A stretch of DNA of 5,764 bases from a virus: IMG/VR virus record IMGVR_UViG_3300029214_000065; one strand, 5' to 3'. Position numbers and translations under genes: made by a program. Below, in pieces: positions 1,588 through 5,136 of this stretch (position 1 is its first letter; each line of letters begins with the position of its first letter). The notes beneath the pieces are model-generated. The model searched no databases. It worked only from the letters and a program-made list of their open reading frames with translations, and was not told the DNA's origin.

Positions 1588-1640
1588 TTATAATATTATA
1601 TTTTATTTAATTATAAAGAAATATATATGATGATAATAGC

Positions 1641-1760
1641 CTGTTGAAACTGTTGATAAAGTAGTTAATTAACTGAAAATAAGAAAATTAAAATGTTAAT
1701 AAACTGTTGATAAGTTTTTGATAAATAATAAGGAAATAATTTGGAAATTTAAAAACAGAA
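1641..1760 (+). repeat. Iteron-like repeat cluster in the AT-rich intergenic region. It contains AACTGTTGATAA x2 (1648-1659, 1702-1713), the TTGATAA core x4 (1653, 1707, 1718, 1866) and ~40-bp imperfect direct repeat R1 (1718-1756), which is repeated as R2 at 1866-1905.
   Basis: Direct reading. R1 is TTGATAAATAATAAGGAAATAATTTGGAAATTTAAAAA and R2 is TTGATAAATAAAGGAAAATATATTTGGAAAATTAAAAT, about 85% identical with small indels. CTGTTGA also occurs at 1641-1647. Confidence 0.6.
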
Positions 1761-1887
1761 TTTCGTAAAATAAAAAACGAAAAATACAAATTTTAAAGGA
1801 AAAAGTTTTAAACAAGTTATAAACAGGATATCAACCGATTTTAATATAGTTATTAACAAGTTATGTTGATAAATAAAGGAAAATATA

Positions 1888-1920
1888 TTTGGAAAATTAA
1901 AATAAATAACAGTATATTTG
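1888..1920 (+). promoter_or_regulatory. Candidate Bacteroidetes sigma-A-type promoter: -33 TTTG (1888-1891), 21-nt spacer, -7 TATATTTG (1913-1920). A second exact TATATTTG lies at 1884-1891.
   Basis: Exact matches to the Bacteroides consensus -33 TTTG / -7 TAnnTTTG with 19-21 nt spacing (established consensus). TTTG is rare on this T-poor strand. The first ATG downstream is at 1935. No other TAnnTTTG was found elsewhere in the genome. Confidence 0.4.
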
Positions 1921-1934
1921 TAAAAAAACAAAAT

Positions 1935-2120
1935 ATGATAAAAGAGAAATACGAAATCGAAATATACGATATAACAACAAACAGTATATCAGTATATGTA
2001 CAAGAAGCAACATCATTTTATAAGGCATTTTTAGCAGCAAAAGCCATGCAAAGAGTTTACAAAAACAATTGGAATAGAAAAACAGAAATACTAAGAATAG
2101 AAAAAAAATATTCCACGTAA
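1935..2120 (+). CDS. Small hypothetical protein p61 (MIKEKYEIEIYDITTNSISVYVQEATSFYKAFLAAKAMQRVYKNNWNRKTEILRIEKKYST). First ORF downstream of the candidate promoter. The ORF is open from ATG 1863 (85 aa), but that start would lie inside or upstream of the promoter.
   Basis: Open frame 1863-2120 with TAA stop. Codon third positions are A-rich like the recognised genes. The in-frame ATG 1935 lies ~15 nt downstream of the -7 box. No recognisable domain. Confidence 0.35.
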   Translation: MIKEKYEIEIYDITTNSISVYVQEATSFYKAFLAAKAMQRVYKNNWNRKTEILRIEKKYST

Positions 2121-2145
2121 ATAACCAATTAATTAATAAATAAAG

Positions 2146-2301
2146 ATGTTTTACAAATGGATATTAAAAATCGTACACCAACAAAGTGGAGAAATAAGAG
2201 AAATAGAAAAACAAGAATCTCTTACAAAAATTGCATCATGGGAAAAAGAAATCAAAAAATCAGGGTGGGAAATCATAACCATAAAAAAGATATACTTATA
2301 A
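2146..2301 (+). CDS. Alternative overlapping small ORF p51 (MFYKWILKIVHQQSGEIREIEKQESLTKIASWEKEIKKSGWEIITIKKIYL). Mutually overlapping with p58, and at most one of the two is likely real.
   Basis: 51-aa ORF, hand-translated. It has a protein-like mixed composition and A-rich third codon positions with many GAA codons. No homology recognised. Confidence 0.2.
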   Translation: MFYKWILKIVHQQSGEIREIEKQESLTKIASWEKEIKKSGWEIITIKKIYL

Positions 2302-2531: not shown

Positions 2532-2798
2532 ATGGAAATAGAAGAATTATTCGTAGTACGACCTGTATCTGAGGAACAAAAAGAATTCATTATAACTGTA
2601 GGAAAACACCTAGCAACGACAAAAAGATTCAAAACAAAAAAATCAGCAGAAACGTATATCAAATACCCTAAATGGGACACCACATTTGCGCTAGTCGCCG
2701 AAATGCTTGAATCGAAAAACGCAGCGGAAAGTCAAATTAAAGAAAATGCTAAAAAAGTAGTAAATAAAATCATTAACGACACAACAAAAGAATCATGA
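2532..2798 (+). CDS. Hypothetical protein p88, immediately upstream of and translationally coupled to the major capsid gene. Possible scaffold or DNA-binding accessory protein; function unknown.
   Basis: ORF 88 aa (MEIEELFVVRPVSEEQKEFIITVGKHLATTKRFKTKKSAETYIKYPKWDTT...). Its TGA stop overlaps the VP1 ATG (ATGA at 2795-2798). No TM segment and no recognisable motif. Confidence 0.5.
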   Translation: MEIEELFVVRPVSEEQKEFIITVGKHLATTKRFKTKKSAETYIKYPKWDTTFALVAEMLESKNAAESQIKENAKKVVNKIINDTTKES

Positions 2799-4735
2799 GC
2801 ATTACAAAATCAATCGGAAAAAACACTTTGGGCGGCGGAAAAAAAATGAACGTCCAAATGAGAAGTTATGAAAGATCAACACACGACCTATCATACGCGT
2901 GGCGCAGTACAATGGGAATCGGAACACTAGTTCCATTCCTATGTGAAATCGGATTACCAGGGGACACATGGGACATCAATCTGGTAGAAAAAGTACTGAC
3001 AAAACCAACAACAGGACCACTATTCGGCAGTTACAAAATGCAAATGGATATTTTCACCTGCCCAATAAGACTATATAACGCACTACTGCACAACAATGCA
3101 CTTAATGTAGGCTTAGACATGAAACAAGTTAAATTACCTGAATTTAACGTAAGCTGTCCAGCAGCATGTTATCCTGAAAAATCGAATGGCAACCAATGGA
3201 TTCAAGTAAACCCAAGCAGTATTTTCGCATACCTAGGAAGAAGAGGATTTACGGGGAGAAAACAAGGAATCTCATTCAACGCAACACCCGAAATTGCATA
3301 TTACGACATATTTAAGAACTACTATGCAAATAAACAAGAAGAAAACTGGTACATGGTTGACTATGACGGATACTGTACTATACAGGACAACTTAAGTTAT
3401 GATAGCAAAGGAAACGTAACAGATGGGTACTTTATATTCTATCCTAAAACAATAACCCAAACAACACAAGAAACAATAGGACCATTATACACATACACAT
3501 TCGGAGAGAAAGAATGGAATTTCACAACAATAACAGGCTGGTTTAATTTCACAGTCAACCAAGCAAACAACTACGTTAAAGTAACACTTAAAAACGAATA
3601 CAAAGCGACAACAACCGGAGTGGGGTTACCAATCGGTGGAAAATTAGCATCAGTAAAATTAATAATGGCAAAATCGATATTAAAAAGTTGGAAACTTACC
3701 GATATTGATGACATAAGAGAAAAAATCTTAGCCGCAGGAAGTACAGAAATATCATTCAATCAAAACGGAAAAACATATCTGGACTATTTGACAAAATACA
3801 CAGGAACAGCCACAACCGGCGGTAGTACTGCAATGAAAAGCAGTTACCCAATGTTCGGACTAGCAATAAAAACACTACAAAGCGACATCTTTAATAACTG
3901 GATTAATACAGAATGGATAGACGGTGATAACGGAATCAGCGCAATTACGGCAATCAGTACCGAATCAGGGTCATTCACAATCGACCAGCTCAACCTTTCA
4001 AAGAAAGTATATGATATGCTAAACAGAATCGCGCTATCTGGCGGAACTTATAAAGACTGGATAGAAACAGTATACACCAATGACTACACAATACATGCAG
4101 AAACACCAGTATACGAGGGTGGCGCATCATGTGAAATTGTATTTAATGAAGTAGTAGCAACCGGAGGAAATGAAACATTAGGTACATTAGCAGGTAGAGG
4201 TATATCAACAGGGCACAAAAACGGTAAATTACACCTAAAAATCAAAGAACCATGTTACGTTATAGGTATAGTAAGTATAACACCAAGAGTAGACTATTGT
4301 CAAGGAAACGCATGGCACACAGACTTGAAAACAATGGATGACTTGCATAAACCACAGCTAGACGGTATCGGTTTTCAAGACTTAACCTGCGATAAAATGG
4401 CATGGTGGAAAGACTACGACAGCGACGGAAAGAAATACGCAGTAGGGAAACAACCAGCATGGTTAGATTACATGACTAACTTCAATAAAACCTATGGCAA
4501 TTTTGCAATAGAAAATTCAGAATCATTCATGGTATTAAACAGATGGTACTACCCAAAAAACTCGTCAAACAACTGGAATACAGAAGAACTAAACACAACA
4601 ACATATATCAATCCTGAAGATTACAACTACATATTCGCCGACACTTCTTTAGGAAGTCAAAACTTTTGGGTACAAATCGGGGTCGGCATCGAATGTCGAA
4701 GAAAAATGAGTGCAAAACAAATACCAAATTTTTAA
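2795..4735 (+). CDS. VP1: Major capsid protein VP1 (Microviridae F/VP1 family), 646 aa. The size is consistent with alpavirus/gokushovirus-type VP1 carrying a large surface insertion.
   Basis: The N-terminal region RSYERSTHDLSYAWRSTMGIGTLVPFLCEIGLPGDTWDINL matches the conserved Microviridae MCP signature (RSxFDLSH..kTTfdaGxLvPi..eVLPGDTf). It is the longest ORF. Alternative internal start at ATG 2846 (MNVQMR). Confidence 0.93.
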   Translation: MSITKSIGKNTLGGGKKMNVQMRSYERSTHDLSYAWRSTMGIGTLVPFLCEIGLPGDTWDINLVEKVLTKPTTGPLFGSYKMQMDIFTCPIRLYNALLHNNALNVGLDMKQVKLPEFNVSCPAACYPEKSNGNQWIQVNPSSIFAYLGRRGFTGRKQGISFNATPEIAYYDIFKNYYANKQEENWYMVDYDGYCTIQDNLSYDSKGNVTDGYFIFYPKTITQTTQETIGPLYTYTFGEKEWNFTTITGWFNFTVNQANNYVKVTLKNEYKATTTGVGLPIGGKLASVKLIMAKSILKSWKLTDIDDIREKILAAGSTEISFNQNGKTYLDYLTKYTGTATTGGSTAMKSSYPMFGLAIKTLQSDIFNNWINTEWIDGDNGISAITAISTESGSFTIDQLNLSKKVYDMLNRIALSGGTYKDWIETVYTNDYTIHAETPVYEGGASCEIVFNEVVATGGNETLGTLAGRGISTGHKNGKLHLKIKEPCYVIGIVSITPRVDYCQGNAWHTDLKTMDDLHKPQLDGIGFQDLTCDKMAWWKDYDSDGKKYAVGKQPAWLDYMTNFNKTYGNFAIENSESFMVLNRWYYPKNSSNNWNTEELNTTTYINPEDYNYIFADTSLGSQNFWVQIGVGIECRRKMSAKQIPNF

Positions 4736-4738
4736 AGT

Positions 4739-5038
4739 ATGGGAAAAATTTTTAAACCTCAAGTAAAATTCGGGTTTCTAGAAACATATTCAGGAGAAAC
4801 AATTGAAACAAAGGTAGAACGTGTAACAGCTAATAATGAACCAATTACAGACGGGGCAGAAATTGTATACACAGAAAAAAAGAACGGTGTAATGCCTGAA
4901 TATAATGTCAGAACGGACAAGTGGGAAATTGCACAAGGAGCAATGGACAGAGTTCATGCGAACAAAATAGCACAAAGTAAATCATACGCAAATCCTGACA
5001 AAAAGAAAGACGAATCAACCGCACCAACAGCGGAATAA
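4739..5038 (+). CDS. Hypothetical acidic protein p99 between VP1 and VP2. Possible internal scaffolding (VP3-like) or other structural accessory protein; unverified.
   Basis: ORF 99 aa starting 4 nt after the VP1 stop (operon-like packing). It is Glu/Lys-rich with a K/D/E/S tail and A-rich third codon positions. No motif recognised with confidence. Confidence 0.5.
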   Translation: MGKIFKPQVKFGFLETYSGETIETKVERVTANNEPITDGAEIVYTEKKNGVMPEYNVRTDKWEIAQGAMDRVHANKIAQSKSYANPDKKKDESTAPTAE

Positions 5039-5067: not shown

Positions 5068-5084
5068 ACATGCGGTACGCATGT
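5068..5084 (+). other. Perfect GC-rich hairpin/palindrome ACATGCG-GTA-CGCATGT (7-bp stem, 3-nt loop) in the p99-VP2 spacer. Candidate mRNA-stabilising/terminator-like structure or complementary-strand origin element.
   Basis: Direct reading. The reverse complement of 5068-5074 equals 5078-5084. It lies 30 nt after the p99 stop. Confidence 0.5.
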
Positions 5085-5105
5085 GTTCTAATATATCGAG
5101 AATAC

Positions 5106-5136
5106 AGCGTATCGCTTTTTTATAACCAAAAAAGCG
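5106..5136 (+). other. Second set of alternative hairpins just upstream of the VP2 start: AGCG-TAT-CGCT + T6 (5106-5122, weak terminator-like) or CGCTTTTTT/AAAAAAGCG (5113-5121 / 5128-5136, 9-bp stem, loop ATAACC).
   Basis: Direct reading of inverted repeats. The two structures are mutually exclusive (shared CGCT), which suggests a regulatory switch or attenuator 8-30 nt before the VP2 ATG. Confidence 0.4.

Follow-up and report, generated by a model that had tools for sequence, protein, structure and literature searches.

An origin-like cassette with DnaA-box-type repeats beside the Rep gene of Bacteroidales-associated gut microviruses

The genome and the element

The IMG/VR virus record IMGVR_UViG_3300029214_000065, a stretch of 5,764 nucleotides that we call the window, is a circular microvirus genome of 5,670 nt, the two ends of the record sharing a 94-nt terminal overlap, and all its genes lie on the + strand. 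The replication gene, Rep/VP4 (676-1587, +), codes for an HUH rolling-circle initiator (Pfam PF23343, REP_ORF2-G2P, E=1.2e-12; PHROG 942 'replication initiation protein', E=5e-33), the translation of which shows the motifs HLHGLIW and YITKYMLK. At the base following the Rep stop codon begins the element with which this work is concerned, a conserved origin-like cassette of 277 nt (1588-1864, assigned to neither strand), made of two facing clusters of the 9-mer TTATNAACA, of an end that resembles the basal unwinding system (BUS) of bacterial chromosomal origins (oriC), and of an A/T run. VP2 (5145, wrapping to 604, +) precedes Rep, the F-type capsid gene VP1 (2795-4735, +; Pfam Phage_F) comes further downstream, and the other genes consist of four small open reading frames (ORFs) and of an ORF of 99 amino acids. 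With its F-type capsid, its two-tyrosine HUH Rep, a circle of about 5-6 kb and a Bacteroidales host, the virus belongs to the Bacteroidales-associated (Alpavirinae-like) Microviridae.

Microviruses outside the phiX174 group dominate many gut viromes, and we know of none among them for which a replication origin has been mapped; a search of the literature on these non-phiX microviruses retrieved nothing on iterons, on DnaA boxes or on an origin that had been mapped. The cassette described here is probably a region of this kind, where replication starts.

Single-protein searches against the GenBank phages and IMG/VR returned no close relative of the window, and a BLAST search of the region against phages and plasmids gave no match, an outcome for which the masking of low-complexity sequence may be responsible. 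Gut metagenomes are rich in Rep homologs, at 44-93% identity, and the comparison set comprised 89 related loci from Logan, IMG/VR and GTDB, to which 65 more were later added. Relatives were found within scaffolds of a Dysgonomonas isolate and of a Bacteroides metagenome-assembled genome, and genes that code for a SusC-like TonB-dependent receptor and for a GH2 glycosidase are joined to phage DNA that bears the cassette, so that the host is to be placed in the Bacteroidales/Bacteroidota. Prophage-like copies and phage-host junctions sit, likewise, in the DNA of Dysgonomonas, Bacteroides and other Bacteroidota.

A first-pass annotation of this DNA had described a 740-bp region downstream of Rep as largely non-coding, and a gap of this length as atypical for Microviridae. 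Two conserved genes must be subtracted from it. The first (1935-2120, +; 61 amino acids) can be aligned from residue 1 with syntenic homologs in L021 (62% identity, E=3e-20), L015 and L009, and the second (2146-2301, +; 51 amino acids), whose start falls inside the annotated span, has homologs in L027 (E=3e-14) and L005 (E=5e-12). As both have syntenic protein homologs, the non-coding stretch is limited to the 347 nt of 1588-1934, about 6% of the 5,670 nt. A long interval is, furthermore, the rule in this group, Rep and VP1 being 850-1700 nt apart in 63/63 relatives that possess both genes.

The boxes and their arrangement

When k-mer enrichment in the Rep-to-VP1 interval, relative to the rest of each genome, was computed for 63 genomes, the enriched words were GTTGATA (19-fold), GTTAATAA (11-fold), TTATGAAC (38-fold) and TATATTTG (16-fold). 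The first three of these are a single unit seen in two orientations, and sequence logos define it as the 9-mer TTATNAACA, of which position 5 alone is variable. The DnaA box varies at position 5 likewise, and the sole difference between the unit and the DnaA box of E. coli, TTATNCACA, is at position 6. The density of the units is 17-fold higher in the 500 nt after Rep than elsewhere in the genomes. Their arrays begin 17-65 nt past the Rep stop, with spacings of 11, 12, 21, 31 and 43 nt across genomes, which therefore place the units on the same side of the helix. The units are grouped in two facing clusters, the forward units coming ahead of the reverse units in 30/31 genomes.

All six exact TTATNAACA units of the window genome fall in 1651-1872. 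On the - strand, a tandem pair is formed by TTATCAACA at 1651-1659, which has 1 mismatch to the consensus TTATCCACA, and by GTTTCAACA at 1642-1650, which has 3, the pair being followed by GG at 1640-1641. Two further boxes have the same orientation (-), TTATTAACA at 1694-1702 and TTATCAACA at 1705-1713, located 43 and 54 nt from the first and identical at 9/9 positions in the close relative L001. The facing cluster (1806-1858, +) consists of TTTTAAACA at 1806, a weak box, of TTATAAACA at 1817 and TTATTAACA at 1850, and also of GATATCAACC at 1827; its boxes, again, are each 9/9 identical in L001, and they belong to an array of 11-nt period that covers 1803-1864. A last box, TGTTGATAA (1864-1872, +), heads the repeat R2. 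Dinucleotide shuffles of the cassette contain on average 0.09 units, to be compared with the 5 observed, and 0/1000 of them reach 5. Between the window and L001, which is a 93% relative, the six boxes are identical at 54/54 positions, while identity is 84.9% over the remainder of the region (p=5e-4).

The repeats from which the first-pass annotation started are present: AAACTGTTGATAA occurs twice (1647, 1701), TTGATAA four times, always on the + strand and within 1653-1872, and the duplicated element is made of R1 (1718-1754) and R2 (1866-1902), 76% identical over 37 nt. Taken as raw counts they are weakly unusual in this genome, as 18/200 shuffles reach four TTGATAA and 22/200 reach at least three near-copies of the 12-mer, so that 9-11% of shuffles match the observed numbers. 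The copies of AACTGTTGATAA listed in that annotation are two of the 9-mer boxes plus their flanks. The check that it proposed, whether the units are kept among relatives while the flanks drift, came out positive for the boxes, and not for the TTGATAA at 1718, a degenerate copy that is mutated in L001.

Boxes of the same sequence are known elsewhere. TTATCAACA/TGTTGATAA has been documented as a DnaA box in Cyanothece and in T. tengcongensis, for which the consensus is TTATCNACA and for which the sequence served in a gel-shift oligonucleotide. Predictions of oriC picked TTATTAACA, TTTTCAACA and TTATCAACA as the boxes of Odoribacter, P. gingivalis and Methylovorus. An IHF site was also considered and set aside: compared by eye, its consensus WATCAANNNNTTR fits the TTATCAACAGTTTA variant alone, and not the common TTATGAACA.

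The cassette, its conservation and its inversion

In the usual order of parts, the Rep stop is followed by cluster A, by a composite TT(G/A)ATAA-N15-TTTGGAA (20/32 genomes), by a spacer and by cluster B, after which come the pair TTATGAACA|GTTTCAACA, GG, CTATTATCATCAT and a run of about 50 nt made only of A and T, ending in ATTATAATAATAG. In most genomes a canonical promoter and the small genes come after this run, either directly or past unrelated GC-rich inserts. Across 67 distinct copies of the cassette the homologous A/T run is 84% A/T over 75 nt, and it is conserved up to its end, ATTATAATAATAG. The run of the window (1588-1627, neither strand), a candidate DNA-unwinding element, is A/T except for one G, and it abuts the Rep stop codon because the cassette has been inverted in this lineage.

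The cassette was found in about 95 related gut microviruses. The core 24-mer of its tandem-pair end occurs once per genome, in 33/89 loci and always after Rep, and it was found again in 61 further Rep-bearing metagenome contigs; a degenerate version of the 24-mer pattern is confined, in IMG/VR, to these microvirus contigs, and Rfam has no match in the window or in 15 relatives. On the Rep tree the presence of the cassette is monophyletic, the exceptions being a few truncated contigs and the genome L002. Between genomes with about 50% amino-acid identity in Rep, the median nucleotide identity of the cassette is 79%, vs 75% for the Rep coding sequence.

Among the approximately 95 genomes, the window and L001 alone have the cassette inverted: positions 1587-1864 of the window align in inverted orientation to L031 (289 nt, E=1e-19), and also to L068. 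The N15 composite remains on the gene strand despite this inversion, and GC-rich inserts part the cassette from the promoter in several relatives. The cassette is strongly constrained, specific to its clade, and independent both of its own orientation and of its distance to the promoter. At 4-fold sites the GC skew is -0.14 in the window (z=-2.9) and -0.26 in L001 (z=-4.0), against +0.19 (sd 0.115) for the cassette clade in standard orientation; the standard-orientation genome L006, at -0.175, overlaps the window and L001, and a link between skew and inversion is therefore unproven.

The genome L002, a full-length one, has in its Rep-to-VP1 interval (340-415) about ten tandem copies of a GC-rich 8-nt unit (TTGCCGGG/TTACCGGG), possibly unrelated iterons that stand in place of the cassette.

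Rep, nicking and the iteron alternative

That the repeats are strikingly similar to the phiX174 origin, as had been proposed at first, cannot be retained, since the likeness is at chance level: 16% of shuffles match or beat it for the 30-mer, and 27% for the 18-mer core. A phiX174-type origin was accordingly rejected. The best local alignment in 1588-1934 scores 21, when shuffles score 18.4 +/- 2.3, and the best phiX-origin match of the genome, obtained with a verified phiX sequence, falls outside 1588-1934. Common to the phiX174 origin (CAACTTG|ATATTAATAACACTATAGACCAC) and to the cassette are the virus family, the two-tyrosine HUH initiator and the hexamer TTGATA; the former is, however, a single copy inside gene A, whereas the units of the cassette are repeated 6-8 times, phased, present on both strands and intergenic. 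Several nick sites placed in direct repeat would also be self-defeating, as the rolling circle would terminate early. Thus, while the proposal of replication-origin iterons between genes survives in part, conserved phased repeats beside rep and an A/T-only stretch making a replication role outside the Rep gene the best reading, the idea that the TTGATA units are themselves nicked by Rep does not fare well: the 9-mer matches a DnaA box and not a Rep nick motif, and the composite is found in bacterial chromosomes as well.

An iteron origin may nevertheless be amended so that the boxes are bound and not nicked, the HUH Rep, perhaps through its N-terminal Cys4 region, binding the phased boxes on the replicative form, melting the A/T run and nicking there. 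The cassette adjoins rep in every genome, its presence tracks the phylogeny of Rep, the sister Rep clade having a different element in the slot, and the boxes are more constrained than their flanks; the 11-nt phasing is, on general knowledge, like that of the pMV158 bind locus and of geminivirus iterons. Linkage to rep is, however, expected from position alone, and L002 carries this type of Rep without the cassette. The same box is found with Reps of 44-93% identity, and as the boxes are unchanged across Reps that are 44-60% identical there is no co-variation between iteron and Rep. No hairpin presents a nick site, no stem-loop that would do so being conserved in the alignment and no fold being more stable than those of shuffles, and the composite end of the cassette is met in bacterial chromosomes with no phage genes nearby. 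We consider binding of the boxes by Rep unlikely, although it is the strongest of the rival readings.

Comparison with known HUH double-strand origins (dso) leads in the same direction. The dso of pMV158 is composed of a nic locus and of a bind locus with three 11-bp direct repeats, and the iterons of geminiviruses and circoviruses lie beside a stem-loop. The cassette shares with origins of this type (pMV158, geminivirus) phased short direct repeats near rep and A/T-rich surroundings; it differs from them in that it has no nick-site hairpin, and in that its repeats match the box of the host initiator and occur in host chromosomes.

The mutual inversion of the two clusters raises a further alternative, that of a minus-strand origin on the packaged single-stranded DNA (ssDNA), where the facing clusters would form a hairpin, either with duplex DnaA boxes as for the ABC-primosome or as a promoter-like hairpin of the M13 type, at which primers would be made. 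Phages with ssDNA need such a site, and the minimum-free-energy fold pairs 1637-1660 with 1820-1843. On neither strand, however, is folding better than that of shuffles (z = -1.0, -0.7); at their variable base the facing boxes systematically fail to pair (G/A vs G), the periods of the repeats differ (11 vs 12 nt), and the GC-rich hairpin elements of sister genomes are better candidates. A minus-strand origin within the cassette seems to us very improbable.

Likeness to the basal unwinding system of chromosomal origins

The published BUS is a succession of tandem DnaA boxes, the better box upstream, of a short GC spacer and of DnaA-trios, followed by A/T-rich DNA (Richardson/Murray laboratory; PMC8287927, PMC6669920); the trio consensus is 3'-GAT-5', and the distance from box to trio has its peak at 10-13 bp (PMC8287927). 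The cassette resembles it in the order and spacing of its parts, with the better box upstream, a second box without gap, a 2-bp GC spacer, further boxes in both orientations, a first trio reading 3'-GAT-5' at a box-to-trio distance of 11 bp, and an A/T run thereafter. It departs from it in its location, beside an HUH rep gene in a 5.7-kb ssDNA phage and not in a chromosome, in having A and not C at box position 6, and in trios that decay after two in most copies.

The rules drawn from chromosomal origins can be applied part by part. For a first box with at most 2 mismatches to TTATCCACA, the 67 copies have TTATNAACA, at 1-2 mismatches; for a second box with at most 4 mismatches and a gap of at most 3 bp, they have GTTTCAACA, with 3 mismatches and gap 0, downstream of the better box; and the A/T-rich region past the trios lies, in the window, at 1588-1627. 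The arrangement TTATGAACA|GTTTCAACA|GG|period-3|A/T is invariant in the 67 distinct copies, with a first trio that is 3'-GAT-5' in 100% of them and a box-to-trio distance of 11-13 bp, 11 bp in the window. There, the period-3 'DnaA-trio-like' stretch (1628-1639, +) reads, 3'->5', GAT AAT AGT AGT; in L001 the corresponding stretch is CG GAT AAT AAT AAT, and AT dinucleotides are conserved with a period of 3 in the 67 copies. The trio rule asks for at least three 3'-NAN-5', the GAT consensus being strongest beside the box, at no more than 16 bp from the box and on the strand that leads 3'->5' away from TTATCCACA; the polarity of that strand was derived here from the layout of the E. coli oriC and from the notation of the published table. 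Read in a frame shifted by one base, the copies have four NAN trios, with a middle A in 100/97/61/93% of the 67, a rule that is easily met in A/T-rich DNA. Written in the notation of the BUS table, the window gives AATAGTTGT CAAAGTTGT CC GATAATAGT (GAT AAT AGT AGT), which may be set beside the Deinococcus row, AATAGGTGT CAAAGGTGT CGGG AATGATAAT (AAT GAT AAT) (PMC8287927).

The BUS-like end of the cassette, 50-80 nt long, and that end alone, recurs in intergenic DNA of bacterial chromosomes without phage genes nearby, an occurrence that points to a host protein and that we regard as the weightiest part of the comparison. The chromosomal module can be written 'TTATNAACA-(G/A)TTTCAACA-GG-CTAT..A/T' and is accompanied by extra boxes; it was seen in L143 (2702-3205), L131, L103 (3236-3395), L122 and L162 (~4780-4880). 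In L143 it closes a region of about 500 nt between divergent genes for rpiB and for a MORN protein, which has more boxes, including a perfect TTATTCACA. The window and L143 are 91% identical over 53 nt (E=2e-16), and the GC skew of L143 turns from -0.14 to +0.03 across the region, which looks like an unannotated chromosomal origin. As a by-product, boxes of the TTATNAACA type and a BUS are thus brought to light in chromosomes that look like those of Bacteroidota, a phylum in which oriC is poorly defined.

A proposed host-DnaA-type origin

What these features suggest, with a likelihood that we would place midway between acceptance and doubt, is that replication starts in the A/T run of the replicative form, melted by host DnaA that has bound the boxes. 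Some eight 9-bp TTATNAACA boxes, in two facing and helically phased clusters, would act on the double-stranded replicative form. The host DnaA (consensus TTATNCACA) would fill the boxes, extend as an oligomer from the box pair along the trio strand and melt the 40-nt A/T run, replication of the replicative form beginning in the melted DNA. This DNA, in turn, would either supply a single-stranded substrate to the HUH Rep or load the host helicase, as plasmids do. A known architecture, that of DnaA-box/BUS-type origins, would thus appear in a new setting, that of a rolling-circle ssDNA phage.

A number of observations weigh against this picture. Box position 6 is A, when the E. coli consensus strongly prefers C, and most boxes (TTATGAACA) depart from TTATCCACA at two positions. 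To our knowledge the DnaA box of Bacteroidales has no experimental definition, and the predicted oriC/BUS rows for Bacteroidales are heterogeneous and low-scoring. The frame that starts with GAT has a middle A in two trios only in the window (AGT AGT comes after), most copies being alike in this respect, and the generic (NAN)x3 rule is easily satisfied by A/T-rich DNA. L002 has a Rep of the cassette clade and no cassette. The chromosomal counterpart in L103/L122 (corA|nadA) has no skew switch and lies 13 nt from a start codon, and therefore not all counterparts can be oriC. Neither phiX-origin alignment nor folding located a Rep nick site in the window. We know of no precedent for DnaA boxes that serve an HUH/rolling-circle phage, and a literature search for such a case found none. 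Finally, DnaA as the binder, the unwinding and the coupling to Rep are what we infer from sequence.

Recruitment of DnaA by mobile replicons is, in itself, familiar: P1 oriR, F oriS, pSC101 and RK2 oriV recruit it through DnaA boxes, in the theta mode and with iteron-binding Rep proteins. Like these plasmid and phage origins, the cassette belongs to a mobile replicon with DnaA boxes, an A/T-rich unwinding region and a rep gene of its own. It is unlike them in that the encoded initiator is a rolling-circle nuclease, and in that no separate Rep iterons are evident.

One may go further, on ground that we see as unlikely to hold, and view the cassette as a portable and complete mimic of a host origin, where the replicative form would be opened for Rep by the host DnaA instead of by supercoiling or a hairpin, or where the phage would persist in a carrier state similar to that of a minichromosome. 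The module, being self-contained, could be flipped, as it has been in the lineage of the window, and the flip would switch the strand to be displaced and packaged: should the choice of displaced strand lie with the cassette, virions of the inverted lineage would be expected to contain the opposite one.

Whatever its fate, the proposal that the host DnaA acts on a BUS-type element is a concrete molecular hypothesis, accessible to standard assays. It comes with a bounded origin candidate, a cassette of 277 nt whose boxes are defined one by one, and of which nature offers about 95 variants, one inversion and one loss. If true, it would tie a rolling-circle ssDNA phage, for the first time, to the initiator of bacterial chromosome replication, and would suggest how such phages could persist in Bacteroidales without an integrase.

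The promoter region

In Bacteroidota, the -33 and -7 promoter elements are about 19-21 nt apart. The elements themselves are, after earlier work on B. fragilis, TAnnTTTG at -7 and TTTG at -33 (PMC7366714). The + strand of the window has just two TAnnTTTG boxes in the whole 5,670 nt, both TATATTTG, at 1884 (1884-1891) and at 1913. The second belongs to a Bacteroidota-type promoter, TTTG-N21-TATATTTG (1888-1920, +), with TTTG at 1888-1891 and with a -7 box that begins 22 nt ahead of the ATG at 1935; the box at 1884 has no -33 element at such a distance, its TTG being only 15 nt upstream. A distance of 22 nt to the ATG implies a very short leader, unlike that of the usual Bacteroidota promoter. 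Among the relatives, 44/63 genomes have a box of this kind ahead of the first small ORF, and the distance between its first base and the ATG peaks sharply at 32-36 nt; the leader of these relatives, about 20-24 nt, fits the modal 5'UTR of B. thetaiotaomicron, which is 23 nt (PMC7366714).

R1 is a composite TTGATAA-N15-TTTGGAA (1718-1746, +), promoter-like and oriented as the genes. Composites of the R1 type were found in 20/32 genomes with the cassette. All lie on the + strand, and the spacer measures exactly 15 nt in 22/22 copies; they have TA-N3-TTTG or TA-N1-TTTG, unlike the canonical TAnnTTTG. R2 (1864-1894, +) is a second, lineage-specific copy of the composite, consisting of the box TGTTGATAA, of N15 and of TTTGGAA, with a -7 box TATATTTG inside. 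Both -7 boxes of the genome being in the R2 area, just ahead of the first small gene, R2 can be understood as promoter DNA fused to a box. The stretch 1864-1934 is, on these motifs, the predicted promoter region of the small-gene/capsid operon, and the 1913 promoter is the probable main promoter of the phage. Two other promoter assignments were discarded: TTGATAA as a -33 element would have a spacing of 15-16 nt and not of about 19-21, and a scan for sigma-70 promoters gives many matches in A/T-rich DNA, irrelevant to a Bacteroidota host.

The alternative of transcription control, also raised at first, holds for R2 and for the 1913 box, which are Bacteroidota promoter elements, and for that part only. 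Extended to the whole, it would make the boxes operators through which a small phage protein, or DnaA as a transcription factor, governs the promoters of R1/R2 and 1913, and would assign them no part in replication. The genome's two canonical -7 boxes do lie here, the box at 1864-1872 is fixed at 15 nt from the TTTGG of R2, the composite is always on the gene strand, and the chromosomal counterparts lie just upstream of genes. Yet the cassette and the main promoter are, in many relatives, 100-350 nt apart, with unrelated GC-rich DNA between them; the 8-10 phased sites, the tandem pair, the period-3 stretch and the 40-60-nt A/T run exceed what operators need, and the BUS-like end has been inverted and moved to the far side without loss. 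Operators alone seem to us quite improbable, more so than binding of the boxes by Rep.

Sister elements and other observations

In the sister Rep clade (L041, L047, L029, L055, L020, L038, L032, L062), the first ~300 nt after the Rep stop have no A/T cassette. The slot is taken there (in L041, 100-260 nt past the Rep stop) by a conserved GC-rich element of about 150-200 nt with hairpins, ..GTGCACCC..GTGGTGTGCG..GGCGATATCAAGGTGCTAGACGCTAAGGAGGGCTACGCGCCCTC.., for which Rfam has no match. Within it stands GATATCAAGG, whose reverse complement, CCTTGATATC, includes the phiX nick core CTTGATAT; the element may act as another kind of origin or as a structured RNA. A second GC-rich element, GGGCTTTCCGGCTCAAACA...ATACTCGCCTYCWATCCCTAAC, is found in both clades (L002 5650-5750, L016 at ~290-360 nt past the Rep stop, L029, L011, L021); its place is ahead of the promoter, after Rep or after the cassette, and Rfam does not list it.

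The genome L085 is a provirus of Dysgonomonas sp. 521, about 6.0 kb long, with the order small ORFs, VP1, ORF, VP2, Rep. Its flanks (2660-2700, 8660-8700) have a 13-bp direct repeat, TAATAGTAATTAT, within dif-like sequences (ACATAA-TAGTAA-TTATGTAACAT); the right repeat is 4 nt past the Rep stop, and a second dif-like sequence lies about 60 nt inside the left end. The cassette could, by analogy, be an integration site, an attP with accessory arms for the host Xer recombinases, as the dif-like site and the direct repeat of L085 occupy the same slot after Rep, and as dif-like att sites have been reported for BMV proviruses (PMC3091885). L085 itself, however, is without the cassette. The best dif score of the window, 22/28, is at the level of shuffles, none falls in the cassette and nothing resembles the attP of L085, while in L105 and L124 the junctions with host DNA are upstream of VP2/Rep and not in the cassette; an Xer site is, in our view, extremely improbable. 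At ~12860 of L105 the junction cuts off the 5' end of Rep beside a GT4 glycosyltransferase gene, and in L124 (3900-5100) host DNA with a SusC-like receptor gene comes before VP2-Rep-cassette-VP1. These two loci are either defective proviruses or chimeric assemblies, with junctions outside the cassette.

A near-palindrome, GTTCCACGTGAAAC, is present in the window as a single copy (606-619, neither strand), 70 nt upstream of the Rep start. The corresponding 14-bp palindrome, GTT(C/T)CACGTG(G/A)AAC, is found in 20/~35 genomes of the cassette clade vs 1/~52 others, at a position that varies: five genomes, the window included, have it 23-70 nt ahead of the Rep start, and most others have it in the small-gene region. 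It was seen also at 5796-5809 of L003 and 3721-3734 of L004. Its half-site TTCCAC resembles the core of the DnaA box, and GTTCCACG is present in the chromosomal locus L103 as well.

Ahead of Rep, the window has no canonical TAnnTTTG box, and Rep may therefore be expressed by read-through or from a non-canonical promoter. The gap between VP2 and Rep contains (620-651) a strong hairpin similar to an intrinsic terminator, AATGCGGGCTAACAACCCGCATT followed by a T-run, and two more hairpins lie at 5068-5135, between the 99-amino-acid ORF and VP2.

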